17,531 nt of DNA from a virus. The notes beneath the pieces are model-generated. The model searched no databases. It saw nothing but the letters and a program-made list of their open reading frames with translations, and was not told where the DNA came from. The stretch is from the UHGV virus genome UHGV-0065625; one strand, given 5' to 3'. Positions within the stretch are counted from its first letter, which is position 1; the number at the start of each line of letters is the position of its first letter. Positions 4,074 through 16,416 of the stretch are shown here, piece by piece. The position numbers were made by a program, and so were the translations under genes.

Positions 4074-5566
4074 TGGCGAGGGGTATCTGGGTTTCACCCG
4101 ATGAATTTGTTGCTTTTTCTGAGCCTCAGAAATCACTGACCGCGCAGATTGCCTCCCGCAGCCGCGCGATCGACTTTTACGGACTGGGCATGTATCTGCC
4201 CAATCCTGATCCCATTCTCAAGGCTCAGGGACGGGATATCCGTATCTACCGCGAACTGCGCACCGACCCGCTGGTCGGAGGCTGTATCCGCAGACGTAAA
4301 GCAGCGCTCAAATCGCTGGAGCGTGGACTGGAGCGCGGTCACGCTTCTGCCCGGGTCTTCCGTTTCATCCGCGACATGCTCGACGATCTGGATCTGTCCC
4401 GCATCATCGGTGAGATGAGCGATGCCGTGCTCTACGGGTATCAGCCCTGTGAAATCATGTGGGGCCGTTCGGTCAGGGCGTGGGCGGTGACGGATATTGT
4501 CGGCAAACCGCCTGAGTGGTTTCAGTTTGATACGGACAACTGCCTGCGCTTCCGGGCGCGTGATGCGGGTGTGGAGGGTGAGCTGCTGTCACCGTCAAAA
4601 TTCGTGGTGCCGGCACAGGATGCCTCGTATGACAATCCTTACGGTTTCCCGGACCTGTCCATGTGCTTCTGGCCGGTCGCCTTCAAGAAAGGCGGGATGA
4701 AATTCTGGCTCCGCTTTGCCGAAAAGTTTGGCTCCCCGTGGGTGATCGGTAAGCACCCGAGGGGTGCAAATGATGCAGAGATTGAAAAACTGCTGGACTC
4801 CATGGAGCAGATGGTGGAGGACGCTGTGGCCGCCATCCCCGATGACAGCAGCATTGAACTCAAAGCCGCGGATGGCAAGGCGGACAGCAGCGAGGTATTC
4901 CGCGAGCTGATCACGCTGTCACGCAGTGAGATCTCCATTGCATTACTCGGTCAGAATCAGACCACGGAAGCGAACAGTAACAAGGCCTCTGCACAGGCCG
5001 GGCTGGAGGTGACGGCTGATATCCGCGATGCGGATGCGGACATCATTCAGGCGGCAGTGAATCAGGTCATCAGAACGGTGGTCACCCTGAACTTCGGCGA
5101 TGTGCCGTGTCCGGTCTGGGCCATGTGGGAACAGGAGGCCATTGATGACACCCGTGCCACCCGCGACGAAAAACTCACCCGCGCGGGACTACGCCTGACC
5201 CCGCAGTACTTCATGCGGGAGTACCAGCTGCAGGAGGGGGATATTGACCTCTCTGATGCACCGGTTGCGGACGGGGCAGTGCCTGCGGAGTTTGCCGAGG
5301 CGATAAGCGCCGATCATGATGCACAACAGCAGCTTGACGACGCGCTGGACATTCTGATGAACGGAGGTGTGTTAAATGGCACGCTGGAACCCGTCCTGGC
5401 ACCTCTGTTCAGGCGGGTCGAAAACGGGGTTAACCCGTCTGAGCTGCTGGGCGAACTGGCGGAGCTCTACCCTCAGATGAACACGGACGATCTGCAGGAG
5501 CGGCTGGCCCGCATTCTCTTTGTGGCAAATATCTGGGGGCGTCTGCATGAGCGTGACAACGGCTGA
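4073..5566 (+). CDS. Portal protein (Mu gp29-like)
   Basis: 497-codon ORF directly after the large terminase gene (TGATG overlap), followed by the F-like gene. Size and position are typical of Mu-type portals. No sequence motif confirmed. Confidence 0.7.
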   Translation: MARGIWVSPDEFVAFSEPQKSLTAQIASRSRAIDFYGLGMYLPNPDPILKAQGRDIRIYRELRTDPLVGGCIRRRKAALKSLERGLERGHASARVFRFIRDMLDDLDLSRIIGEMSDAVLYGYQPCEIMWGRSVRAWAVTDIVGKPPEWFQFDTDNCLRFRARDAGVEGELLSPSKFVVPAQDASYDNPYGFPDLSMCFWPVAFKKGGMKFWLRFAEKFGSPWVIGKHPRGANDAEIEKLLDSMEQMVEDAVAAIPDDSSIELKAADGKADSSEVFRELITLSRSEISIALLGQNQTTEANSNKASAQAGLEVTADIRDADADIIQAAVNQVIRTVVTLNFGDVPCPVWAMWEQEAIDDTRATRDEKLTRAGLRLTPQYFMREYQLQEGDIDLSDAPVADGAVPAEFAEAISADHDAQQQLDDALDILMNGGVLNGTLEPVLAPLFRRVENGVNPSELLGELAELYPQMNTDDLQERLARILFVANIWGRLHERDNG

Positions 5567-6368
5567 ACTGGCGTACTGCATGACGCTTCCCCCGAAGCGG
5601 GCAGTCAGCTACCTGAAGTCCAAAGGGTATCAGATTACCTGGGACTGGGAGGAGATGTGGCAGGAAGCCCATGCCCGCGCCTTTACCGTCGCTAAAGTGA
5701 CCCGCCTGGATATCCTGGAAGATATTCGCGGGGCACTGCAGCAGGCTGTCGATGAAGGAAAAACCGATCGCTGGTTCCGGCAGGCGCTGGAGCCGGTGCT
5801 GAAGCGTAAGGGATGGTGGGGACCACGTGACACGACTGACCCGGTAACGGGTGAGCCGGTCACCATTCAGCAGGGCAGTCCGTGGCGGCTCGATACCATC
5901 TTTCGCACCAATATGTCCGTACTCTACAGCGCCGGTCGTTGGGCGGAGCAGATGGAAAACGTCGACGACAGGCCGTACTGGATGTATACCGGCATCAACG
6001 ACAGCCATACCCGCAGGAGCCATCTGGCGCTGCATGGTCTGGTGCTGCGCTGGGATGACCCGTTCTGGCAGGCATTTTACCCGCCGAACGGCTGGCGCTG
6101 CCGCTGTAGTGTGATTGCCCTGAGTGCGGCGGATGTACGTGCCCGTGGCCTGAAGGTTATCAGCTCCGGCTCTGTCATGGGCCAGGAACTGAAACTGGTC
6201 TCAGAGAAAACCGGCGAAATGCGGAACGTGGCCACCTTTAATACCGGCACCACGAAGGTGACCACCGACGTCGGCTGGTCTTATGCACCGGGGGCAGCAT
6301 ACCGTCCCGACCTGGCCCGCTATCAGGGTACGTTTCAGCCACTGGCACAACAGGAACTGAGAGGATAA
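5547..6368 (+). CDS. Head morphogenesis protein, Mu F / SPP1 gp7 family
   Basis: Contains the family-typical Cys motif PPNGWRCRCSV. Start set at ATG 5547 (GGGGG 7 nt upstream) rather than the TTG at 5520 reported by the ORF track. Overlaps the portal 3' end by 20 nt. Confidence 0.8.
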   Translation: MSVTTAELAYCMTLPPKRAVSYLKSKGYQITWDWEEMWQEAHARAFTVAKVTRLDILEDIRGALQQAVDEGKTDRWFRQALEPVLKRKGWWGPRDTTDPVTGEPVTIQQGSPWRLDTIFRTNMSVLYSAGRWAEQMENVDDRPYWMYTGINDSHTRRSHLALHGLVLRWDDPFWQAFYPPNGWRCRCSVIALSAADVRARGLKVISSGSVMGQELKLVSEKTGEMRNVATFNTGTTKVTTDVGWSYAPGAAYRPDLARYQGTFQPLAQQELRG

Positions 6369-6370
6369 CA

Positions 6371-6829
6371 ATGGCTTCCGATAACCTGGTCAGTATCACC
6401 ATTAACGATAAATCCCTGCGCCGGAGCCTCCGTGCGCTGGATCTTGCTGCCACAGACCTGGAGCCCGCGATGCGCAAAATCGCCGGAACCCTGCTGGCGG
6501 AAACACAGTTTAACTTTCTTGATGAGGGGCGTCCGGGGTGGATGCCCTCGCTGGCAGCGGAAGAACGTGACGGGCAGACACTGCAGGATACCGGGCGTCT
6601 GATGGGGTCAGTATCAACCGACCATGACGACCGGCAGGCTGTTGTGGGGACCAACGTTGTTTACGGTGCCATTCACCAGTTCGGGGGTAAAACGGGGCGT
6701 AATGAGTCTGTTGAACTTCCGGCCCGCCCGTTCCTGCCGGTGACGGGGGATGGAGAACTACAGCCTGAAGTGGTAATCCCCATCCTCGATACCATTGTCC
6801 GCCATCTTGAATCAGCGGCCCGTCGCTGA
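6371..6829 (+). CDS. Virion morphogenesis protein (Mu G-like)
   Basis: 152-codon ORF two bases after the F stop, with GAGG 8 nt upstream. Assignment by size and position. Confidence 0.55.
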   Translation: MASDNLVSITINDKSLRRSLRALDLAATDLEPAMRKIAGTLLAETQFNFLDEGRPGWMPSLAAEERDGQTLQDTGRLMGSVSTDHDDRQAVVGTNVVYGAIHQFGGKTGRNESVELPARPFLPVTGDGELQPEVVIPILDTIVRHLESAARR

Positions 6830-6871
6830 GTTTTCTCTCTTCAGGCGGGTGATTTATCATTGCCAGCGAAT

Positions 6872-6917
6872 GAGGGGCTGTATTACCTTTATAAAGGCTT
6901 TACAGCCTCTGTTTTAT
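6872..6917 (+). terminator. Candidate intrinsic terminator / composite palindrome downstream of the G-like gene
   Basis: Inverted repeats GAGG(gg)CTGTA (6872-6882) and TACAGCCTC (6901-6909) flank a perfect 12-bp palindrome CCTTTATAAAGG (6886-6897), followed by TCTGTTTTAT. Read directly from sequence. Confidence 0.35.
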
Positions 6918-6929
6918 AACCGCTTCCGG

Positions 6930-7043
6930 TTCACCGCATTGCTTTCCCTGTCCTTCTCCCCTGATGTTTTCTAAAGCAGATTAAAATCGCCGGGCCTGCA
7001 TTTCTCACAAACTGTCTCCGACAACATAACGCGGGACAGCAAA
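6930..7043 (+). promoter_or_regulatory. Candidate late promoter region upstream of the protease/scaffold gene
   Basis: 214-bp non-coding gap in an otherwise gapless operon. TAAAAT at 6982-6987 is a -10-like hexamer with no obvious -35, as expected for activator-dependent late promoters. In Mu the I gene has its own late promoter. Weak, positional inference. Confidence 0.25.
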
Positions 7044-8159
7044 ATGTCAGCCATTCACATTTTTAAAGCCGGTACTCATACCGATATGCACGGCAAAAAA
7101 CTGCCGTTCACGCCAGACGATCTTGCCGCCTGCGTGAAAGCCTATGACCCGTCCGTCCATGAAGCACCACTCGTGATTGGTCATCCCAGAACGGAAGACC
7201 CGGCGTGGGGCTGGGTGAAAGCCCTGTCGCTCAGCGGCGTCGATCTGATGGCAGAGCCTGCCCAGTTGGACCCGCAGTTTGCTGAGATGGTCACCGACGG
7301 ACGATTCAAAAAAGTGTCCGCCTCTTTCTACCTCCCGGATTCACCGTCCAATCCGAAGCCCGGCGTGCTCTACCTGCGCCATGTGGGCTTTCTCGGGGCA
7401 CAGCCACCTTCCGTCAAGGGGCTGAAACAGGTGTCCTTCAGTGAGCAGGAAGAAGGTGTGGTGGAGTTCGCCGACTGGCAGGCCATCACGAATGCCTCCC
7501 TGTGGGGAAAGCTGCGCGATTTTCTGATCGCCCGCTTCAGTCTGGACGAAGCAGAAAAAGTCCTGCCGGAATGGCAGCTCAACAATCTGCGCGAAGAGGC
7601 GTACCGCGACACACCGTCGCAGGATGCAGCAGGTGCACAATTCAGTGAGACAGGCCAGGTGCCGTCTTCCGCAAGTAACGAGGAATCATCAATGACAAAA
7701 GAAGAGATTGAAGCCCTTCAGGAGGAGAACCGCCGCCTGAAGCAGCAGGCTGCTGATCGCGATGCGCGTGATGCACAGGCCAGACAGGAGCAACTGCATA
7801 AGGACAATGTGGCCTTTGCAGAAAAACTGGTCGCAGAGGGGCGTCTGGCTCCCCGCGCCTCCTCCGTGGTGGTTGCCCTGCTGGATGCCGTCGCCGGTGG
7901 CGACAAGCCGGTGGAGTTTGCTGAGGGGGAAAGCCGCACGCCGCTGGCCACCGCCTTCCGTTCATTGCTCTCCGACGGGGAGCCGGTGATGAATTTCGCC
8001 GAACAGGCCACAAAGGAGCGTGTCGGCGACACGGTGAAGGTGGATGTGGCGGAGTTTGCGGAAGCCGATCCTGAGCGTCTGGCCCTGCATCAGAAAGCAG
8101 TGGCCCTGTCCAAAAAAGAAGGCATCAGCTATGAGGCTGCTGTCGCACGCTGCCTGTAA
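7044..8159 (+). CDS. Prohead protease / scaffold protein (Mu I-like)
   Basis: 371-codon ORF preceding the putative major head gene. Acidic, coiled-coil-like C-terminal third (EEIEALQEENRRLKQQAADRDARDAQARQEQL) typical of scaffold domains. Confidence 0.65.
   Translation: MSAIHIFKAGTHTDMHGKKLPFTPDDLAACVKAYDPSVHEAPLVIGHPRTEDPAWGWVKALSLSGVDLMAEPAQLDPQFAEMVTDGRFKKVSASFYLPDSPSNPKPGVLYLRHVGFLGAQPPSVKGLKQVSFSEQEEGVVEFADWQAITNASLWGKLRDFLIARFSLDEAEKVLPEWQLNNLREEAYRDTPSQDAAGAQFSETGQVPSSASNEESSMTKEEIEALQEENRRLKQQAADRDARDAQARQEQLHKDNVAFAEKLVAEGRLAPRASSVVVALLDAVAGGDKPVEFAEGESRTPLATAFRSLLSDGEPVMNFAEQATKERVGDTVKVDVAEFAEADPERLALHQKAVALSKKEGISYEAAVARCL
7692..8159 (+). CDS. Nested in-frame scaffold protein (Mu Z-like) from an internal start within the protease gene
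   Basis: Internal ATG at 7692 (MTKEEIEALQEE...) preceded by GAGGA at 7680-7684 with 7-nt spacing. Mu makes scaffold Z from an internal start in I. Confidence 0.45.
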   Translation: MTKEEIEALQEENRRLKQQAADRDARDAQARQEQLHKDNVAFAEKLVAEGRLAPRASSVVVALLDAVAGGDKPVEFAEGESRTPLATAFRSLLSDGEPVMNFAEQATKERVGDTVKVDVAEFAEADPERLALHQKAVALSKKEGISYEAAVARCL

Positions 8160-8173
8160 TTTAAGGAGAAATC

Positions 8174-8602
8174 ATGTCTGATTACTTAAAAGGTAAACGT
8201 GTCGTTGATCCGGTACTGACCAGTATCGCCCGAGGCTATAAAAATGCCGCATTCATTGGCGAACGTATTTTCCCCGTCGTGCTGACGGACAAGGAAGGCG
8301 TGCGTGTGCCGACCTTCGGGAAAACCGCCTTTGTGGAATATGACACTGAGCGTGCCGTCGGGGCGGACAGCAATGTTCTGGTCCGTGAGAAAACCGGCAC
8401 GCTTGATCTGGTGCTGGGTGAGCACGATCTGGCTGCGCCGGTGGACTATCGCGAGCAGGCGGAGTCCATGTTTAACGAGGAGAGCAAGGCCATCCGTCGC
8501 GCCACGAATGGCGTGAATCTGCGCCGTGAACTTATCGCCGCCCGTCTGGCTCAGGATGAAAAGGTCTACCGTACGCGAGAAGCTGCCTCAGCTGCAGGTT
8601 GA
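8174..8602 (+). pseudogene. Putative major head subunit, N-terminal 142 codons only (frame break or deletion)
   Basis: Strongest ribosome-binding site in the window (AAGGAG, 5-nt spacing to ATG 8174), directly after the scaffold gene where the major capsid gene is expected. The ORF is far too short for a capsid protein and overlaps the next ORF in another frame. Confidence 0.4.
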
Positions 8603-8996
8603 GTACTTCCCGGAAAAGCCGTCCGAATACCGCCTCAATCATTCTGTCGGGGCGTTGCTGCTGAGCTATGCAGGATCGCGTTTCGACAGGCCGGATGATA
8701 CCGGTGCGGTGATCCAGCCTCAGACTATCCAGCTCTGCGTCACGGTGGTCTTCCGACAGCTCAACGGTAAAAAAGGGGCGATTAATGTCCTGGATGCTGT
8801 CCGCCGCATTCTTGGTGGCTACACCCCGCCCGGGTGCCGCCGCCGTATCTGGCTGACCCGCGAGGTGTTTATCGGTGAAGTCAGGGGGCTGTGGCAGTAC
8901 GCCCTCGACTTCGCGACTGAAAGCGTCTTTATCGAAGACAGCGATTTACCGTCCGGCCCGCTGTTAACTGAAGTGAACTATGAGGAAAGCGAGTGA
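8526..8996 (+). CDS. Structural protein, possibly head-tail joining (Mu gp37-like); 5' end uncertain (GTG 8526 or ATG 8556)
   Basis: Frame-3 ORF overlapping the upstream ORF by 77 bp. Contains ...EYFPEKPSEYRLNHSVGALLLSYAGSRFD..., which resembles my recollection of small Mu-like virion proteins. Unverified. Confidence 0.35.
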   Translation: MNLSPPVWLRMKRSTVREKLPQLQVEYFPEKPSEYRLNHSVGALLLSYAGSRFDRPDDTGAVIQPQTIQLCVTVVFRQLNGKKGAINVLDAVRRILGGYTPPGCRRRIWLTREVFIGEVRGLWQYALDFATESVFIEDSDLPSGPLLTEVNYEESE

Positions 8997-9247
8997 TGAA
9001 AGAATACCGCTATTCCGGCCCGGCCAGCGGCGTCACGCTGTCGGACGGAACCGAAATCCTGCTCTGGCCGGGGAAGACTGTTTCCCTGCCGGAGGAGCAT
9101 GACTACGTGAAGGTACTGGTGGCGCTGAAGCATCTGACGCCGGTATCTGAAGAAATTAAACCCGCCGGCACACCGGCTGTGCAGTCACCAAAGCGCAGGA
9201 ACGGCGGTGACAGCGAGGTGAAAACGGAGGACGCCCATGTCAGCTAA
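8993..9247 (+). CDS. Small hypothetical virion-associated protein (Mu gp38-like position)
   Basis: 84-codon ORF between the head-joining-like gene and the sheath gene. The likely start is ATG 8996, preceded by AGGAAAG. Confidence 0.5.
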   Translation: MMKEYRYSGPASGVTLSDGTEILLWPGKTVSLPEEHDYVKVLVALKHLTPVSEEIKPAGTPAVQSPKRRNGGDSEVKTEDAHVS

Positions 9248-10664
9248 CTATCTGCATGGTCCGGAAACCATTGAAGTGGAAAACGGTGCCCGCCCGGTTA
9301 AAACGGTGAAATCTGCCGTTATTGGCCTGATTGGTACCGCACCAATGGGGGATGTCAATACGCTGGTACAGTGCCTGTCTGAGAAAGACGCTGCGGCATT
9401 TGGCAGCCAGTTCACCGGCTTTACCATTCCACAGGCGCTGGATGCGATTTATGACCATGGTGCAGGCACCGTTCTGGTCATTAACGTACTCGATCCGTCT
9501 GTGCATAAAACCGCTGTGGTCAGTGAGAATGTGTCGTTCGACAAGGCGACAGGCAGAGCCCGGCTGGCTAATCCGGTGGTCGCGCAGCTGGTACTGAAAC
9601 CGGACAGCGACGGTCAGCCTTATGTTGAAGGTCAGGACTACTCGCTTGATGCACAGACCGGGGTGATTACTAACCTGGGTAAAAGCATTGCTGCAGATGC
9701 AACGGTGAAGGCCAGCTATAACTATGCTGATCCGACCAAAGTCACCCCGGCTGATATCATCGGTACCGTTAACGCTGCAGGCAACCGTACCGGCATGAAG
9801 CTGCTTAACGACAGTTTTAACCTGTTTGGCTACTTCGCCAAAATCCTGATTGCTCCGGTATTCTGCACCCAGAACAGCGTCTCGGTTGAGCTTATCGCCA
9901 TGGCTGAGAAACTGGGAGCAGTAACCTATATTGATGCGCCGGTTGGTACCACTTTTGCGCAGGCTCTGGCGGGACGAGGCCCGGAAGGCACCATTAACTT
10001 TAATACCAGCTCTGACCGTGTCCGCCTGTGCTACCCGCATGTGAAGGTATATGACCCGGTGACGAACACGGAACGTCTGGAGCCACTGAGCCAGCGTGCG
10101 GCGGGCCTGCGTGCCAAAGTCGACCTGGACAAAGGGTACTGGTGGTCATCCTCAAATCAGGAAATTCTGGGGATCACCGGCGTGGAGCGCCAGCTGTCGG
10201 CAATGATTGACGATCCGCAGAGCGAGGTGAACCTGCTTAACGAACAGGGGATCACCACGGTATTCAGCAGTTACGGCAGCGGCCTTCGTCTGTGGGGTAA
10301 CCGGACGGCAGCATGGCCAACGGTCACCCATATGCGTAACTTTGAGAACGTTCGCCGCACCGGTGATGTGATCAATGAGTCCATTCGTTACTTCAGCCAG
10401 CAGTACATCGACATGCCGATTACTCAGGCGCTGATTGATGCACTGACGGAGTCGGTCAACGCCTACGGTCGCAAAATGACTGGTGATGGCGCGGTACTGG
10501 GCTTCCGTTGCTGGTTTGATCCGGCCCGCAATCCGGAAACGGAGCTGGCCGCCGGGCACCTGTTGCTGAGCTACAAATATACGCCACCACCGCCGCTGGA
10601 GCGACTGACGTTTGAGACTGAGATCACCTCGGAATACCTGTTAACCCTGAAAGGGGGCAACTGA
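9237..10664 (+). CDS. Contractile tail sheath protein
   Basis: 475-codon ORF with GGAGGA ribosome-binding site, immediately followed (1-nt overlap) by a 173-codon tube-sized gene. This sheath/tube pairing and size are typical of Mu-like and P2-like myophage tails. Confidence 0.8.
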   Translation: MSANYLHGPETIEVENGARPVKTVKSAVIGLIGTAPMGDVNTLVQCLSEKDAAAFGSQFTGFTIPQALDAIYDHGAGTVLVINVLDPSVHKTAVVSENVSFDKATGRARLANPVVAQLVLKPDSDGQPYVEGQDYSLDAQTGVITNLGKSIAADATVKASYNYADPTKVTPADIIGTVNAAGNRTGMKLLNDSFNLFGYFAKILIAPVFCTQNSVSVELIAMAEKLGAVTYIDAPVGTTFAQALAGRGPEGTINFNTSSDRVRLCYPHVKVYDPVTNTERLEPLSQRAAGLRAKVDLDKGYWWSSSNQEILGITGVERQLSAMIDDPQSEVNLLNEQGITTVFSSYGSGLRLWGNRTAAWPTVTHMRNFENVRRTGDVINESIRYFSQQYIDMPITQALIDALTESVNAYGRKMTGDGAVLGFRCWFDPARNPETELAAGHLLLSYKYTPPPPLERLTFETEITSEYLLTLKGGN

Positions 10665-11185
10665 TGTCAAAGATTGAGATAAACCGAATCACGAATGCCA
10701 ACATCTATCTGGATGGTACTAACCTGCTGGGACGGGCTGAGGAGGTTAAACTCCCCGATGTCTCCATGATTATGCAGGAACACAAGGCACTGGGGATGGT
10801 GGGTAAGGTGGAACTCCCGGCTGGTTTTGACAAACTGGAAGGCGAAATCAAATGGAACAGCTTTTACCGCGATGCGATGCTGTCTGCCGCGAACCCGTAC
10901 AAGTCGCTGGCGCTGCAGTGTCGCTCCAGCGTCCAGCGCTACAGCTCGCAGGGGCTGATCGACGAAATCCCGCTGGTCACCTTCCTGACAATTATGTTCA
11001 AGAAGAACCCGCTGGGGACGTTTAAACAGCACGAGAACGCCGAGTTCTCCAGTAGCTTCACCTGCACGTATATCAGACAGGTACTGGATGGTGAAGAGTT
11101 GCTGCAACTGGACTATCTGGCCAACATCTTCCGCGTCGGTGGCGTTGATCAACTGACTGACTATCGGATCAATATCGGGGGCTGA
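10664..11185 (+). CDS. Tail tube protein
   Basis: 173 codons; start overlaps the sheath stop (TGATG). Size and position match tube proteins. Confidence 0.75.
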   Translation: MSKIEINRITNANIYLDGTNLLGRAEEVKLPDVSMIMQEHKALGMVGKVELPAGFDKLEGEIKWNSFYRDAMLSAANPYKSLALQCRSSVQRYSSQGLIDEIPLVTFLTIMFKKNPLGTFKQHENAEFSSSFTCTYIRQVLDGEELLQLDYLANIFRVGGVDQLTDYRINIGG

Positions 11186-11187
11186 CG

Positions 11188-11469
11188 GTGAGTGTTGAAC
11201 TGACTGACAAAGGAGGGCGATGTGCGTCACTGGGCATGTCAAATGGTACGTGGTTTACCCTCCTTGATATTCCGGGGGTGGAAACCCTTTTTAATACCCG
11301 TAAAACCAATGACCCGATTGACTGCACACGTTCAAAGGCCCGCAAACTGGCCGATTTGATTGAAGCATGGGAGCCGCCCGACCACTGGTTCTCCGGCATC
11401 GGCAAATCTGAGGGAAAGGCGCTTCTCATCGCTTTCCTGCGTAACTGCAAGGGTTTTCGCACTTGCTGA
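11188..11469 (+). CDS. Hypothetical 93-codon protein between tube and chaperone genes; possible moron
   Basis: ORF from GTG 11188 (GGGGG 7 nt upstream), Cys- and Trp-containing. Followed by a hairpin plus T-rich tract. No equivalent gene is expected at this position in Mu. Confidence 0.35.
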   Translation: MSVELTDKGGRCASLGMSNGTWFTLLDIPGVETLFNTRKTNDPIDCTRSKARKLADLIEAWEPPDHWFSGIGKSEGKALLIAFLRNCKGFRTC

Positions 11470-11475
11470 CATCAC

Positions 11476-11500
11476 AGGGGCTCCGGCCCCTTCTTCTTAA
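11476..11500 (+). terminator. Candidate rho-independent terminator after the 93-codon ORF
   Basis: AGGGGC-tccg-GCCCCT stem-loop (11476-11491) followed by TCTTCTTAATCTCCTTT. Confidence 0.45.
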
Positions 11501-11566
11501 TCTCCTTTAATATCCGTCACGTCCACCGCCAGACATACTGCTCTGAATTTACAAAGGAGTATGATC

Positions 11567-11902
11567 ATGTCACAGACCCAGTCCGATACTTTTACGCTGT
11601 CTTATCCTTTCACCACTGCTGCAGGTACCAGAATTGAACAGATTGAACTGAAACGCCTGACAGTAAAAGACCTGAAGCAGGTGCGCAAAATCAACAAAGA
11701 CCCGGCAGACTGGGACGAACCACTGATTGCCCGTAGCACCGGTATCCTCCCGGAAGACCTCGATAACATGGATCTTGCCGACTATATGGAGCTGCAGAAA
11801 CGATTTCAGAAAATCACTGGGCTGGGCAAGAGCGACAAAAACACTGATGCAGGCGCAGGGCCTGCTGGCGAGATGGTTCAGGTTTCAGCCGGGGGAGATT
11901 GA
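11567..11902 (+). CDS. Tail assembly chaperone (short, unshifted product)
   Basis: Small acidic ORF between the tube and tape-measure genes. Start set at ATG 11567 (AAAGGAG 7 nt upstream) rather than ATG 11561, which has only 1-nt spacing. Ends at TGA 11900-11902 immediately after a G5 run. Confidence 0.6.
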   Translation: MSQTQSDTFTLSYPFTTAAGTRIEQIELKRLTVKDLKQVRKINKDPADWDEPLIARSTGILPEDLDNMDLADYMELQKRFQKITGLGKSDKNTDAGAGPAGEMVQVSAGGD

Positions 11903-11984
11903 TGCCCTCGATACTGACGATCTGGAGATGTGGCTGGAGCAGGCTGAAGAGCAAATCAAAAGCGAGTTCGGCGACAATCAGTAA
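11567..11984 (+). CDS. Tail assembly chaperone, frameshift-extended fusion product (predicted +1 or -2 slip at GGGGG 11891-11895)
   Basis: The +1 frame is open across the G5 run and encodes a protein-like acidic tail EIDALDTDDLEMWLEQAEEQIKSEFGDNQ ending at TAA 11982-11984. The upstream part of that frame (track ORF 11727..) reads as out-of-frame junk. A conserved frameshift in chaperone genes upstream of the tape-measure gene is established. Confidence 0.4.
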
Positions 11985-11997
11985 CAACGTATCACTT

Positions 11998-12020
11998 AAC
12001 AGCCGCCAGTCGCGGCTGTT
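11998..12020 (+). other. Perfect 9-bp-stem hairpin (AACAGCCGC-cagtc-GCGGCTGTT) between chaperone and tape-measure genes
   Basis: Exact inverted repeat read from sequence; no adjacent U-tract, but a T7 run lies about 30 nt downstream. Confidence 0.4.
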
Positions 12021-12076
12021 CTGCATGGGGTTCAGACACTTCCCTTCCGTTTTTTTGCTTTCAGAGGATAGCCACC

Positions 12077-12583
12077 GTGGCCAGTGAATTTTCAGTCGGC
12101 GTCATTATTGGCGGCATTGTCGGGAGCAGCTTCCGCTCAGCCGTCAGTGGCACCCGACGCGCCCTTGATTCCCTTGGTGATACCTCCCGCCGTCTGCAGG
12201 AACGCCAGAATGCCTTAACCCGGGCAACAGAACGTTATGGTCAACTGGGTTCTTCCCGGATGCAGCATCTCAACAGCGAGTTGCTGCGGGTAAGCCGCAC
12301 CATGGAGCAAATTGAACGTCAGCAGCGCCGTCTGTCAGCAGTATCAGCCACCGGTGATGCGTTGAAGGCTAACCGCCTGGCGCTCTATGGTCAGGGTGCA
12401 GAAACCTATGCTATTGGCAGAACGCTGGGCGCACCGGTCATGGCCTCGGTTAAACAATATGCCTCGTTTGAATCACAGTTGCGGGATATCAGTGTCACAG
12501 GAGACCTGGATGCAAAACAGGAACGTGCAATTGGCCTGGCTATCAGACAGGCCTCGCTGAAGGTTACGGTACATTCTCAATAG
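12077..12583 (+). pseudogene. Tail tape-measure protein, N-terminal fragment (168 codons)
   Basis: N-terminus MASEFSVGVIIGGIVGSSFRSAVSG... and the ...YASFESQLRDISVTGDLD... segment resemble tape-measure N-termini. Far too short for a functional ruler protein; terminates 8-10 codons after the apparent junction with hub-like sequence. Confidence 0.55.
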
Positions 12584-13437
12584 ACGAGATCGAAGTGAGT
12601 TCGCCCGCGTCCGTTGTCGCTATCCGTGGGGTGGCCACCTCGGTTAACAGTGCTCTGCGGACTAAATCCAGCCGTGGTTTTGAGAACACCACGCTGGCAG
12701 CTGTTGCGGGTCGGATTGCCAGAAAGCACCGGCTGAAACTGGTGGGCAGCATTGAGTCCATCAGAATCGACCGGGTGACCCAGTATGCTGAAACCGACGT
12801 GGGTTTTCTGCGCCGGCTGGCCAGCGAGTATGGTTATGCAGTGAAAGTGGTCAGTGACCAGTTGATTTTTTCTCATCTGGCCACATTGCGCAGTCAGGAG
12901 CCGGTCAGGCAGTTAAAACCGCAGGATGTGGCCCACTTTTCCCTGCGTGACACCATCAACCGGGTCTATAAATCTGCAAAGGTAAAACACCAGAAAAGCA
13001 GCAGTAAAAAACTGATCGTCTACGAAGCTGATGGTGGTACCCGTGAAAGCGACAAAAAGCTCAAAGGCGGTAAGGTTACCAGCGCTGACTCACTTAAAGT
13101 TAACAGCCGCGTCAGCGACCCGGACAGTGCTCGGATTAAAGCGGATTCAGCACTGGCCAGACATAACGAATACCAGCAGAACGGCTCCCTGACGCTGACG
13201 GGAACGCCTCAACTGACAGCAGGCAACAAAATTGAACTGGTGGGCTTTGGACAATTATCCGGTCCATGGCTGATAATCACTGCCCGCCATGCGTTTGAGC
13301 GTAACAGCGGCTACACCACAGAGCTGGAAGTGGCACGGGGGCCAGTCACAAGAGGGAAAAAACAAAAAACTCAGAAACTCACGGTTTATCACCCGGATGG
13401 CAGTACATCGACGGTGATTAAGGAGAAGAAAAAATGA
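12472..13437 (+). pseudogene. Baseplate hub / late control D-like protein (P2 gpD, Mu gp44-like), 5'-truncated
   Basis: Frame open from 12472 with no start until GTG 12595. Recognisable hub-family similarity begins at ...EGYGTFSIDEIEVS... (about 12559) and continues (TTLAAVAGRIARKHRL, FLRRLASEYGYAVKV). The N-terminal ~75 residues expected for this family are missing. Confidence 0.55.
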
Positions 13438-13946
13438 CTGGTGTCACCCGCCAGGTCGGTACGGTCAGTGCCGTTGATGCCGACAGGGTTCAGGCCCGCG
13501 TTCGTCTGCCTGAATGCGATAATCTGCGCACAAACTGGCTTAACGTGCTGCAGCGCAATACCCAGGATAACAAGGATTACTGGCTCCCTGACGTGGGGGA
13601 GCAGGTTGAGGTGCTGCTCGATGCCAACGGCGAGGATGGTGTTATTCTGGGCGCGGTGTACTCAGACGTCGATAAACCGCCGTTCGGTGATAAAAACGTC
13701 CGGGGCACGAAGTACGCTGATGGCGCGGAGTTCAGTTATGACCGCGCGACCCATACGCTGACGGTCAAAGGAGGTATCGAGCATGTGGTGATCGAGGTTG
13801 CAGTGGGTATTAGTCTGAAAGGGAAAACCATTGATTTGACAGCTGACACTATCATGGTGAACGGCAATCTTGAAATCAAAGGGAGTACCCATGCGACTGG
13901 TAACATATTTGCAGATGGACAGAATTCCAATCATCACTCTCACTAA
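13434..13946 (+). CDS. Baseplate spike / assembly protein V-like
   Basis: 170-codon ORF overlapping the hub stop (ATGA), in the position of the spike gene. C-terminus ends in the His-rich NSNHHSH. Confidence 0.7.
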   Translation: MTGVTRQVGTVSAVDADRVQARVRLPECDNLRTNWLNVLQRNTQDNKDYWLPDVGEQVEVLLDANGEDGVILGAVYSDVDKPPFGDKNVRGTKYADGAEFSYDRATHTLTVKGGIEHVVIEVAVGISLKGKTIDLTADTIMVNGNLEIKGSTHATGNIFADGQNSNHHSH

Positions 13947-13985
13947 TTTTTCAAGTATGTGACTCCATTTCCTCTCCCGCGGATA

Positions 13986-13994
13986 TGATAGAAT
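13986..13994 (+). promoter_or_regulatory. Extended -10 promoter element TGaTAGAAT upstream of the island ORF
   Basis: TG-n-TAGAAT at 13986-13994 followed by an AT-rich tract; no good -35. A GGCGGGGA ribosome-binding site lies 5-6 nt before ATG 14028. Confidence 0.3.
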
Positions 13995-14027
13995 TTTTTA
14001 ATTAACACTAATTTGGCGGGGACTTAA

Positions 14028-14903
14028 ATGCGGTTATCAAGATCCTTATGTAAAGTAGTTGGCGATGTCATTGCTAACTCAGGCTCTCATGCAGCTTTAG
14101 ATACGTTATTTCTTACTTCGGGAGCACCAGGAAACCCTCCGGCAGGATCTCATAGTACAAAATGGAAAGACTGGTTATTTCTTGCAGGGCAAGATCCAGA
14201 TACAGATAGTCTGGCAGTTCTGGGCGGAGTAATTGAGGAGTTTATGGATTTACCTCCAAAAGAAGGTACTCCCGAATATGCAGAATGGAAGGAAAAACGA
14301 GACAGAATTGAAGCTGTGTTACAAGAGAATGGACTTAGATATTATCGTTTTGGTCGAGTGTTGCCTGAAGGCCACATCCCGTCACACAATATGGATTACC
14401 CAGAGACCATAATTACTTATCAACAGCCAGTAATGCCAGAAAAAGTTGAGAACTTACTGGAAAGGCTGGTCAAAGGCTTACAGCGAGCAATGCATCCACT
14501 TACTCATAGGCGAAAAGGAAGCCAGTCATTATCTTTTAGCAATGAATATGACGTGCAAGACCTTCTCCATGCATTGCTCAGACCATGGGTTCAGGACATC
14601 CGCCCAGAAGAGTTTACTCCAAGTTATGCTGGTTCAAGTACTCGAATGGATTTTTTGTTACCTGCGCATAAATTAGTACTGGAAACCAAAATTGTTCGTG
14701 ATCGTTCTCATGCAAAGAAAATCGGCGATGAACTTATTATCGATATAGAGCATTATCGTCGGCACTCTGATTGCAAAAATCTCTGGTGTGTCATCTACGA
14801 TCCGAACCAGCTTATTACTAATTCTGAGGGGCTGAAATCTGATCTTGAGGGGAAGAGAGTTTCTAAAGACGGAGAACTTATCGTCAAGGTTTTCGTAATT
14901 TAA
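14028..14903 (+). CDS. Cargo protein with C-terminal PD-(D/E)xK nuclease-like domain and N-terminal domain of unknown function; candidate defence/abortive-infection effector
   Basis: 291 codons. Motif read from translation: acidic helix NEYDVQDLLHAL (E173/D175), then RMD208FLLP, then LVLE219-T-K221 with 10-residue D-to-E spacing. No Walker motif in the N-terminal ~165 residues. Nuclease assignment is motif-based inference. Confidence 0.6.
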   Translation: MRLSRSLCKVVGDVIANSGSHAALDTLFLTSGAPGNPPAGSHSTKWKDWLFLAGQDPDTDSLAVLGGVIEEFMDLPPKEGTPEYAEWKEKRDRIEAVLQENGLRYYRFGRVLPEGHIPSHNMDYPETIITYQQPVMPEKVENLLERLVKGLQRAMHPLTHRRKGSQSLSFSNEYDVQDLLHALLRPWVQDIRPEEFTPSYAGSSTRMDFLLPAHKLVLETKIVRDRSHAKKIGDELIIDIEHYRRHSDCKNLWCVIYDPNQLITNSEGLKSDLEGKRVSKDGELIVKVFVI

Positions 14904-14957
14904 CAAACGTATCAATAACTCCTTTTTAAATCCCTTTAATATCGTTCTTTTCTTACT

Positions 14958-14973
14958 GGGGCAATACTGCCCC
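14958..14973 (+). other. GC-rich hairpin (GGGGCA-atac-TGCCCC) ending 1 nt before the W start codon
   Basis: Exact 6-bp inverted repeat with 4-nt loop. It occupies the position where a Shine-Dalgarno sequence for W would be expected; no U-tract follows. Confidence 0.35.
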
Positions 14974-14974
14974 C

Positions 14975-15322
14975 ATGAAAACGACCTCAGTATTCTGGCA
15001 ACCGGCTCTGCAGGCTCCCGGCGAAATCGTCCGGGGGCTGGATGATATCCAGCAGTCCATCCAGATCATCCTGCGGACTCCCCGCGGCAGCGACCCGCAT
15101 CGCCCAGAGTTCGGCAGCAATCTGCACCTTTATATCGACTGGCCTGTCGACCGGGCCATTCCGCATGTGGTTCGCGAATCCGTCGATGCCATCAGGCGCT
15201 GGGAACCCCGCTGCCAGCTTATGTCGGTTAAACCCGCCGTCGACGGCGAACATCTTACGCTCCGGGTGAGCTGGAAAGGCTCAGACGGACAACCCCGTAC
15301 TCAGGAACTGCTATGGCGCTGA
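14975..15322 (+). CDS. Baseplate wedge protein W (GPW/gp25 lysozyme-like family)
   Basis: 115 codons containing ...IILRTPRGSDPHRPEFGSNL..., matching the family pattern as I recall it. Followed by an overlapping J-like gene. Confidence 0.75.
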   Translation: MKTTSVFWQPALQAPGEIVRGLDDIQQSIQIILRTPRGSDPHRPEFGSNLHLYIDWPVDRAIPHVVRESVDAIRRWEPRCQLMSVKPAVDGEHLTLRVSWKGSDGQPRTQELLWR

Positions 15323-16416
15323 CAGAACCCGATTTTATTGAACTCGATGCCGATAAAATCACGGCAGAAATGATTGCGAAATATGAAGCGGATACCGGCA
15401 AAACGTTGTACCCGGCACAGGCAGAACGTCTGCTGATAGATCTGTGGGCCTATCGCGAAATGCTGGTCAGGGTGGCGGTACAGGAGGCGGCGAAGCTGAA
15501 TCTGGTCGCCTTTTCCCGGGAGCCGATGATTGATTACCTCGGAGAACTGGTTGGTGTATACCGCCTTCCCGCGCAGCCTGCCACCACCACACTTCAGTTC
15601 TCTGTGGATGAGGCACTGGCCATTGATGTGCTGATCCCGGCAGGCACCCGCGTCAGCGCTTCCGACAGCGTGATTTTTGCCACCGATACAGATGTAGTGC
15701 TGAAGGCCGGTTTGCAACTGGTCAATGCCCCTGCCACCTGTACTGAGCCGGGTACCTCTGGCAACGGCTGGCAACCGGCTCAGGTCAGTCAGCTGCTTGA
15801 TGAGATTGATAACGTTGACCTGCTGGTGACCAATCTGACGGCCAGCACTGGCGGTTCAGAGCAGGAAGACAATGACCGACTCCGGGAGCGTATCAGGCTG
15901 GCCCCGGAGTCATTCACCAATGCCGGAAGCCGTGGTGCATACCGTTTTCATGCCATGGGGGCGCATCCCAGTATTGTCGACGTCGCTGTTCTTTCTCCCG
16001 TTCCCGGTACTGTCGAGCTGTATCCACTGCTCAGCACTGGTCTGCCAGACAGCAGTATCCTCACTCTGGTAGAGAGTTTCTGTTCTGACGAAAAAGTCAG
16101 ACCACTCACTGATACCGTGCGGGCTAAAACACCTGTTCAGGTGGATTACACCATTGAAGCCAGGATTACGATCTATCGTGATCAGGATGCAATGTCGGTA
16201 AAGGACAACGCTAACAGCGCCATACAGAACTGGGTGGCATCACGTGCCGCCACGCTGGGACGCGATATTGTCCCCAGCCAGATTATCAGTGCATTGTCCG
16301 TTTCCGGGGTGTACCAGGTTGAACTGGTGACACCGGCACTGCGGGTGGTTGCAGAAAACGAATGGGCAAACTGTACGGCAATCACTCTTAACGTGACAGG
16401 GGTGTCCGATGGCTGA
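15313..16416 (+). CDS. Baseplate J-like protein (Mu gp47 / P2 gpJ-like)
   Basis: 367 codons, overlapping W at the 5' end and the I-like gene at the 3' end. Size and order match baseplate J proteins. Confidence 0.7.
   Translation: MALTEPDFIELDADKITAEMIAKYEADTGKTLYPAQAERLLIDLWAYREMLVRVAVQEAAKLNLVAFSREPMIDYLGELVGVYRLPAQPATTTLQFSVDEALAIDVLIPAGTRVSASDSVIFATDTDVVLKAGLQLVNAPATCTEPGTSGNGWQPAQVSQLLDEIDNVDLLVTNLTASTGGSEQEDNDRLRERIRLAPESFTNAGSRGAYRFHAMGAHPSIVDVAVLSPVPGTVELYPLLSTGLPDSSILTLVESFCSDEKVRPLTDTVRAKTPVQVDYTIEARITIYRDQDAMSVKDNANSAIQNWVASRAATLGRDIVPSQIISALSVSGVYQVELVTPALRVVAENEWANCTAITLNVTGVSDG

Follow-up and report, generated by a model that had tools for sequence, protein, structure and literature searches.

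A conserved UUU_C tetranucleotide as the proposed +1 frameshift site in the gpE-like tail assembly chaperone gene of an Escherichia coli prophage

Frameshifting in phage tail assembly chaperones is textbook biology. For the chaperone gene analyzed here the question is whether an overlapping reading frame is joined to it by a ribosomal frameshift and, if so, at which nucleotides and in which direction. The gene is part of a 17,531-nucleotide stretch of viral DNA (UHGV-0065625), referred to below as the window. The original prediction, made from the window alone, placed a shift in the +1/-2 direction at a run of five G residues (the G5 run) close to the chaperone stop codon. The features that bear on the question are collected in Table 1.

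Table 1. Coordinates of the chaperone locus and of neighboring tail genes in the window
Feature	Position	Strand	Remarks
Sheath gene	9237-10664		Contractile-tail module
Tail tube gene	10664-11185		Contractile-tail module
Small ORF, 93 aa	11188-11469		Between tube and chaperone genes; weak DUF7739 match
Shine-Dalgarno-like AAAGGAG	11553..11559	+	Read from the sequence; serves start 11567
gpE-like tail assembly chaperone, 111 aa	11567..11902	+	Pfam PF10109 Phage_TAC_7; standard-decoding product
UUU_C, proposed +1 slippery tetranucleotide	11804..11807	+	Phe codon TTT and C of the next codon; conserved
E' part of the proposed frameshift product, 58 codons and TAA, RKSLGWARATKTLMQAQGLLARWFRFQPGEIDALDTDDLEMWLEQAEEQIKSEFGDNQ	11808..11984	+	+1 frame; homology
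G5 run	11891..11895	+	Within E' codons CCG GGG GAG (Pro-Gly-Glu); not a conserved shift site
0-frame chaperone stop TGA	11900..11902	+	Position varies among relatives
Tape measure gene start	12077..12583	+	Cut off after ~163 codons; 3341 bp deleted as compared with intact copies

From its closest phage records, Klebsiella phage KP12 and Escherichia phage PhiKM (filed under Bcepmuvirus in the case of PhiKM), and from its contractile-tail gene content, the window is identified as an E. coli prophage whose head is Mu-like and whose tail is P2-like. DNA identical to positions 11480-12100 is present in 32 complete E. coli genomes, and related DNA at an identity of at least 80% in 641 of the 5426 complete E. 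coli genomes. E. coli B7A and strain 3-72, for instance, have an intact prophage with identical DNA in this region. The tail module is arranged in the order sheath, tube, a small DUF7739-like ORF, Phage_TAC_7 chaperone, tape measure start and gpD onward, with gpV, a DpnII/MboI-like ORF, gpW and gpJ following gpD. The DUF7739 match of the small ORF scored 25.7 bits, just below the cut-off of 27. KP12, PhiKM and the E. coli copies all have this ORF at the corresponding position, with the annotation 'hypothetical protein'. The DpnII/MboI-like ORF (14028-14903, 291 aa) is located between baseplate genes V and W and contains a DpnII/MboI-type restriction endonuclease domain (Pfam PF18742, E 4e-47). 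The intact E. coli copies share this ORF, again under the annotation 'hypothetical protein'. It looks like a moron or a defence gene inside the tail module; no methylase adjoining it was noticed.

Compared with an E. coli prophage that is otherwise 99.9-100% identical to it (L001), the window lacks two segments. Window positions 8574-12566 match L001 positions 4095-8087, and window positions 12565-15757 match L001 positions 11429-14621. The first missing segment (3341 bp, junction at 12566) comprises most of the tape measure gene, which in intact form is 2466 nt long (RefSeq), as well as gpU, gpX and the first ~94 codons of gpD. The second one (1390 bp, junction at 8574) belongs to the head module. 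Microhomology at both junctions is limited to 1-2 nt. The 5426 complete E. coli genomes and the IMG/VR loci contain neither junction. The window copy may therefore be a defective remnant whose strain of origin has not been sampled; otherwise, the gaps arose as an artefact of assembly or construction.

The chaperone itself is readily assigned. It matched Phage_TAC_7 with 80.3 bits (E 1e-22) and 85.0 bits in two runs (cut-off 25), and its residues 10-86 cover profile positions 1-78 of 79. As expected for P2 gpE-type chaperones, its gene is found after the tail tube gene and before the tape measure gene of a contractile-tail module, and the identical gene is named 'phage tail assembly protein' in RefSeq. 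An NCBIfam scan of the chaperone ORF and the overlapping +1 ORF returned no matches. Translation more likely starts at ATG 11567 than at ATG 11561, which would give a protein of 113 aa. The AAAGGAG element is 7 nt away from the former start and only 1 nt from the latter, and the RefSeq start of the identical gene is equivalent to 11567. The 3' end of the gene reads GTT TCA GCC GGG GGA GAT TGA. The original prediction had the stop codon at the right position but placed it directly after GGA, overlooking the intervening GAT.

To analyze the overlapping frame we used relatives of the locus collected from IMG/VR (78 loci), from species-representative genomes (54 loci) and from several annotated phages, which together provided 84 unique sequences. 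In the window, the +1 frame is open from 11727 up to the TAA at 11982-84 and ends with ...PGEIDALDTDDLEMWLEQAEEQIKSEFGDNQ before the stop, so that it runs through the G run just as originally described. The -1 frame encodes an implausible protein and continues through the intergenic region. In all relatives from Enterobacterales, Betaproteobacteria, Moraxellaceae and Pseudomonas that were examined, the extension (E') occupies the +1 frame, as it does in the window, which agrees with the +1/-2 direction originally given. An open +1 frame in relatives had been named as a check, and the ORF is indeed kept, in a fixed frame relation, in all +1-type relatives. Counted from TTC, it is always at least 50 codons long in the 84 unique relatives.

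Translations of the +1 frame from the Phe codon are collinear and homologous end to end in 22 diverse relatives, in which a conserved W and then L-W precede LLARWFRFQPSEI. The Trp codon at 11823-25 (TGG) is invariant, and the third base of the codon before it is free (GGC, GGA, GGG, GCA, GCC, GCG). Conservation within the extension is strongest in the segment ...TLMQAQGLLARWFRFQP (11841-11891). From AQGLLARWFRFQP onward the sequence is invariant in close Enterobacterales relatives, and the motif GLLARWFRFQP, located upstream of the G run, is little changed in most of the distant ones. A profile built from 18 diverse +1-frame E' sequences matched both P2 E' (probability 92%, E 6e-7, aligned from 11853) and Pasteurella phage E' (probability 97%, E 1.5e-11, aligned from 11832). 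The Pfam model PF06528 (Phage_P2_GpE) matched E' with 16.5-17.4 bits (E 0.003-0.006), below its cut-off of 23. The view that the +1 frame upstream of the G run does not resemble a protein is thus overturned, as this is the very region that is best conserved and aligns with E' of P2 and Pasteurella phage.

Substitutions among close relatives delimit the region in which each frame is read. Upstream of 11803 there are 55 synonymous and 27 non-synonymous substitutions in the 0 frame, compared with 12 and 70 in the +1 frame. For 11853-11899 the pattern is reversed, with counts of 14 and 2 for the +1 frame and of 2 and 14 for the 0 frame. Purifying selection on the +1 frame is therefore evident from 11853, and E' is already read well upstream of the G run. 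Between these regions (11808-11852) neither frame is clearly favoured (7 synonymous and 15 non-synonymous substitutions in the 0 frame, 10 and 12 in the +1 frame). This ambiguous pattern fits a dual-coded linker, but alone it does not fix the shift site.

RefSeq offers a different reading of the same ORF. In identical E. coli copies PGAP annotates 11847-11984 as a separate 45-aa 'GpE family phage tail protein' (WP_001148841.1), whereas in other identical copies E' is unannotated. According to this annotation, E' would be an independent small protein made without any frameshift, and the window does have an ATG at 11847. However, the Met at this position is not conserved, being replaced by Thr, Ile, Lys or Trp in relatives, and it is not preceded by a Shine-Dalgarno sequence. 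The +1 ORF has no conserved start codon at all, since in 11 of the 84 unique relatives the +1-frame segment from TTC to the conserved motif contains neither ATG nor GTG nor TTG. Moreover, conservation of the +1 frame reaches upstream of 11847, to the invariant Trp codon and to the beginning of the homology with Pasteurella E', and in P2 the homologous E' is produced solely through frameshifting, as an extension. We therefore regard a separate E' protein as very unlikely. The conserved ORF without a conserved start and its homology to P2 gpE' support the originally proposed joining of the chaperone to a +1-frame extension by frameshifting. As far as sequence comparison can tell, the long form of the chaperone very probably needs a +1 ribosomal frameshift.

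The position of the shift is bounded by stop codons of the relatives. In Ralstonia, Pandoraea, Verminephrobacter and others, a +1-frame stop is located only 3 codons upstream of the Phe codon TTT. At the other side, the 0 frame ends 7 to 11 codons past TTT in Acidovorax, Rivihabitans, a Moraxellaceae MAG, Polaromonas and Pseudomonas phage Bise. Over the 84 unique relatives this leaves an interval from 3 codons before to 7 codons after TTT. The 0-frame stops of these relatives occur 7 to 59 codons after TTT, or 7 to 32 if the in-frame variant L077 is set aside, and in the 22 diverse relatives the 0-frame tails past TTT consist of 6 to 32 residues rich in Gly and Ala. Within the bounded interval, the only invariant nucleotides are TTTC. 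When 21 sequences from different genera are aligned, no other block is invariant within the first ~60 columns.

TTT_C is found in all 63 unique relatives with a +1-frame E' and in 9 unclassified ones, but in none of the 11 relatives of the -1 type (Pasteurellaceae). The +1-type relatives that keep it span Enterobacterales, Ralstonia, Acidovorax and a Pseudomonas phage. The codon before TTT varies (CGA, CGG, GCA, GCG, GCC, TCC, TCG, ACA, AAA, GTG), and TTT may be followed by Q, L, R or H, yet the first base of the codon for this residue is always C. This suggests that the constraint acts on the nucleotide rather than on the amino acid. In most high-GC hosts TTT is the minority Phe codon (TTC is preferred), and yet it is kept; as a rough estimate, the product of the per-locus TTT frequencies over 15 loci is 10^-8.6. 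The conservation of TTT is partly due to the protein, since this Phe is a conserved residue of the chaperone domain. Conservation combined with 0-frame reachability in all members distinguishes UUU_C from the G5 run, which has neither. In two IMG/VR relatives (L048 and L049), a change of CAG to TAG ends the 0 frame 11 codons after TTT (window 11837-39) and leaves E' intact. Such a stop is compatible with a shift at UUU_C and incompatible with any site further downstream. From these comparisons of related sequences, it is likely that the slip takes place at UUU_C, with tRNA-Phe moving from UUU to UUC and gpE+E' of 138 aa as the product.

No element that might stimulate the shift was detected around this site. 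There is no conserved RNA structure after UUU_C (the alignment fold has -0.43 kcal/mol and 3 pairs only), the window's own fold in this region has a z-score of -0.5, and no Shine-Dalgarno-like element could be read upstream of UUU_C. The 0-frame A-site codon after UUU is CAG here, which is not rare. Consequently, the efficiency could be low. Further downstream, between the E' stop and the tape measure start, we observed a stem-loop with a 9-bp stem (11998-12020, AACAGCCGC-cagtc-GCGGCTGTT). The stem is kept in most Enterobacterales relatives and the loop varies freely (CAGTC, CCCTC, TACTC, CACAC, ATCAG and others). No T run follows the stem-loop, which is therefore not a classical terminator.

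The events that we infer, including the slip itself, its efficiency and the functions of the products, can be outlined as follows. One chaperone start would give rise to two proteins. Most ribosomes would remain in the 0 frame until the TGA and release gpE of 111 aa. A minority would slip by +1 while tRNA-Phe occupies the P site on UUU (11804-06). Its GAA anticodon could re-pair with the overlapping UUC (11805-07), a perfect match, after which decoding would resume at AGA (11808) in the +1 frame and proceed to the TAA. A -2 slip at UUU_C would have no re-pairing option. Counted from ATG 11567, the long product gpE+E' would have 138 aa and the junction ...MELQKRF/RKSLGWARATKTLMQAQGLLARWFRFQPGEID... 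(also given as ...MELQKRF/RKSLGWARATKTLMQAQGLLARWFRFQPGEIDALD...), the region around it being ...ELQKRF/RKSLGWAR.... A stimulatory RNA structure or a Shine-Dalgarno-like element would apparently be unneeded, UUU_Y being intrinsically prone to +1 shifts in bacteria. By analogy with lambda G/GT and P2 E/E+E', the shared N-terminal domain may bind the tape measure protein and the E' domain may recruit the tube protein, while a low frequency of slipping would set the ratio of gpE to gpE+E'. Since the tape measure gene is truncated in the window, this particular copy may no longer need the frameshift product, and its frameshift signal may be inherited rather than in use.

Might the ribosome change frame at the G5 run after all? 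According to the original prediction, tRNA-Gly would re-pair on GGG_G; a -2 shift at the run, as in phage Mu, would be the alternative to a +1 shift. The product would be ...VSAG(G)-EIDALD... with an extension of 29-30 residues. The run does exist, and the 0 frame of the window reaches it two codons before the stop. The idea also had a real precedent in phage Mu, where a -2 chaperone shift on a G5 run (CGG_GGG_CGA) has been verified. As in the window, the Mu chaperone (gp41/Mu_56) is encoded just upstream of the tape measure gene, with an extension that uses the +1/-2 frame. The two chaperones are nevertheless not of one family: Mu gp41 is a member of Gp41_Mu (PF23746, 116 bits) and scores only 23.8 bits with Phage_TAC_7, below the cut-off; conversely, the window chaperone has no PF23746 match, and the Mu extension is without the WFxF...SEI motif. 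The main evidence against the G5 run comes from the relatives. The 0 frame reaches the run in only 15 of the 84 unique sequences. In another 29 it ends 4 codons before the run at a TAG equivalent to window 11879, even though the run and the whole E' frame are kept, and 38 have no G5 run at all (e.g. CCGAGTGAG and CCTGGGGAG). In addition, the product of a shift at this run would miss GLLARWFRFQP, the most conserved E' motif and one homologous to P2 E', and purifying selection on the +1 frame is evident as early as 11853. Nor is a G5 run statistically unusual, with 24 GGGGG matches observed in the window versus 48 expected from shuffles. As a conserved mechanism, a shift at the G5 run is already contradicted by the related sequences, and we find it extremely unlikely as the source of the long form; incidental slippage at the run may occur in the window's own lineage. 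The proposed UUU_C lies ~87 bases upstream. Accordingly, neither the VSAG-EIDALD junction nor the length of 30 residues can be retained, the E' part amounting to 58 codons from 11808.

Two relatives are natural variants in which E and E' share one frame. One of them, from IMG/VR (L077), has G4 in place of G5, which fuses the frames exactly at the run (PAG-EIDALD). This might be counted in favor of the G run, but it is a single sequence, and a change in homopolymer length is typical of mutation or sequencing error. The other one, Apirhabdus apintestini (L099), has apparently lost one base ~5 codons upstream of TTT. In both cases mutation or a homopolymer sequencing error is the probable cause; a genuine variant of either kind would produce the fused form only.

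A +1/-2 shift could also take place elsewhere in the overlap, either on GGG_N at 11858-61, or on codons around TTT, or through out-of-frame binding in the A site without re-pairing. Close relatives seemed to favor the first of these positions, as CAGGG (11856-60) is kept among them and many have GGG_G there; the ambiguous substitution pattern of 11808-11852 would be in line with such a shift as well. GGG_N was dropped as a candidate once distant relatives were compared, since these may have no GGG at the equivalent position (AAT GGC GCT in L082, GAA GCT GCT in L083), and since in others the 0 frame ends far upstream of it, 7-11 codons after TTT (L115, L120, L109, L114, L085, L122). In addition, TTTC is the sole invariant sequence inside the bounded interval. 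A shift at any of these alternative positions appears improbable. The A-run GAC AAA AAC (11834-42) was also considered as a site and rejected; relatives do not keep it, and the -1 frame runs into a stop immediately. We thus retain UUU_C as the proposed site.

Of the characterized systems, P2 gpE/gpE+E' is the one most similar to the window chaperone. Both have the same two Pfam domains, Phage_TAC_7 followed by the GpE' motif (FHWPPSEL in P2, WFRFQPGEI here), and the two genes have corresponding positions, after the tube gene and before the tape measure gene. The products are similar in size, with 91 and 142 aa in P2, and 111 and a predicted 138 aa in the window. In P2, E' is essential. In both cases no stimulatory structure is evident (PMC3091744). 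The direction of the shift is different. P2 uses a verified -1 site, T_TTT_TTG, whereas the window has E' in the +1 frame and, in place of the U6 heptamer of P2, just UUU_C as conserved motif. Both the P2 shift and the one proposed here fall on a Phe codon at the C-terminal edge of TAC_7 (profile position ~77 in P2 and ~74 in the window), but the alignment of the chaperone C-termini is ambiguous by ~3 residues, and therefore we claim only the same domain boundary. Lambda gpG/gpGT follows the same two-product logic, although with a different direction and slippery motif and with no sequence similarity to the window gene.

The Pasteurellaceae homologs are different again. They have a lambda-type G_GGA_AAG ~5-6 codons downstream of the TTT position and E' in the -1 frame. 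In these relatives (L084 and L118-L138, from Haemophilus, Pasteurella, Actinobacillus and related genera) the region reads ...CAA AAG GGA AAG..., and in some of them E and E' overlap by only 19-25 nt, which pins the -1 site. Within one gene family the direction of the shift, -1 or +1, therefore depends on the lineage.

The proposed site has counterparts in unrelated genes. UUU_Ynn has been described as having a particular tendency to shift by +1 in bacteria even when no stop follows on its 3' side, and UUU_Y is the apparent site of the Yersinia YopN-TyeA shift (PMC5009743). Influenza PA-X is produced by a +1 shift on UCC_UUU_CGU (PMC3498833). These sites, along with the error site of E. coli argI, share with the window the tetranucleotide and the proposed tRNA-Phe re-pairing, and the tetranucleotide works there without an adjacent stop codon. 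In the literature searched we found no use of a UUU_Y site in a tail chaperone of the P2 gpE family and no specific description of a +1 UUU_C site in P2-like or BcepMu-like phages, although a prior description is possible. As to the direction, we agree with the original prediction that it is the less common one for tail chaperones; forward (+1) shifts account for 350 of the 2718 annotated chaperone sites in SEA-PHAGES genomes (PMC10885494). Shifts of -1, -2 and +1 in tailed-phage chaperones have all been listed in a review (PMC5009743), and +1 recoding of a chaperone is an ordinary, already known kind of event in phages.

Because tail-chaperone frameshifting as such is textbook knowledge, the value of the present analysis is mainly corrective. 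The G-run site and its junction peptide would have misdirected a mass-spectrometry or reporter experiment. Beyond the window, the candidate UUU_C lineage includes about 640 of the 5426 complete E. coli genomes as well as Beta- and Gammaproteobacterial prophages. We tentatively propose, with somewhat more doubt than confidence, that this lineage of P2-gpE-type chaperones uses a selected, stimulator-free +1 shift on a bare UUU_C, whereas its homologs use -1 heptamers at the same or a nearby domain boundary. If this is true, RefSeq currently mis-annotates the recoded gene as two separate ones, splitting off the long product's C-terminal part as a spurious 45-aa gene in hundreds of E. coli genomes. 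The UUU_Y 'error' site would then be in natural, selected use, and a single gene family would display a clean switch of frameshift direction, with U_UUU_UUG in P2 and G_GGA_AAG in Pasteurellaceae on the -1 side. The chaperone family, comprising +1 (UUU_C) and -1 members, forms a compact natural series that could test the minimal sequence required for a functional +1 site.
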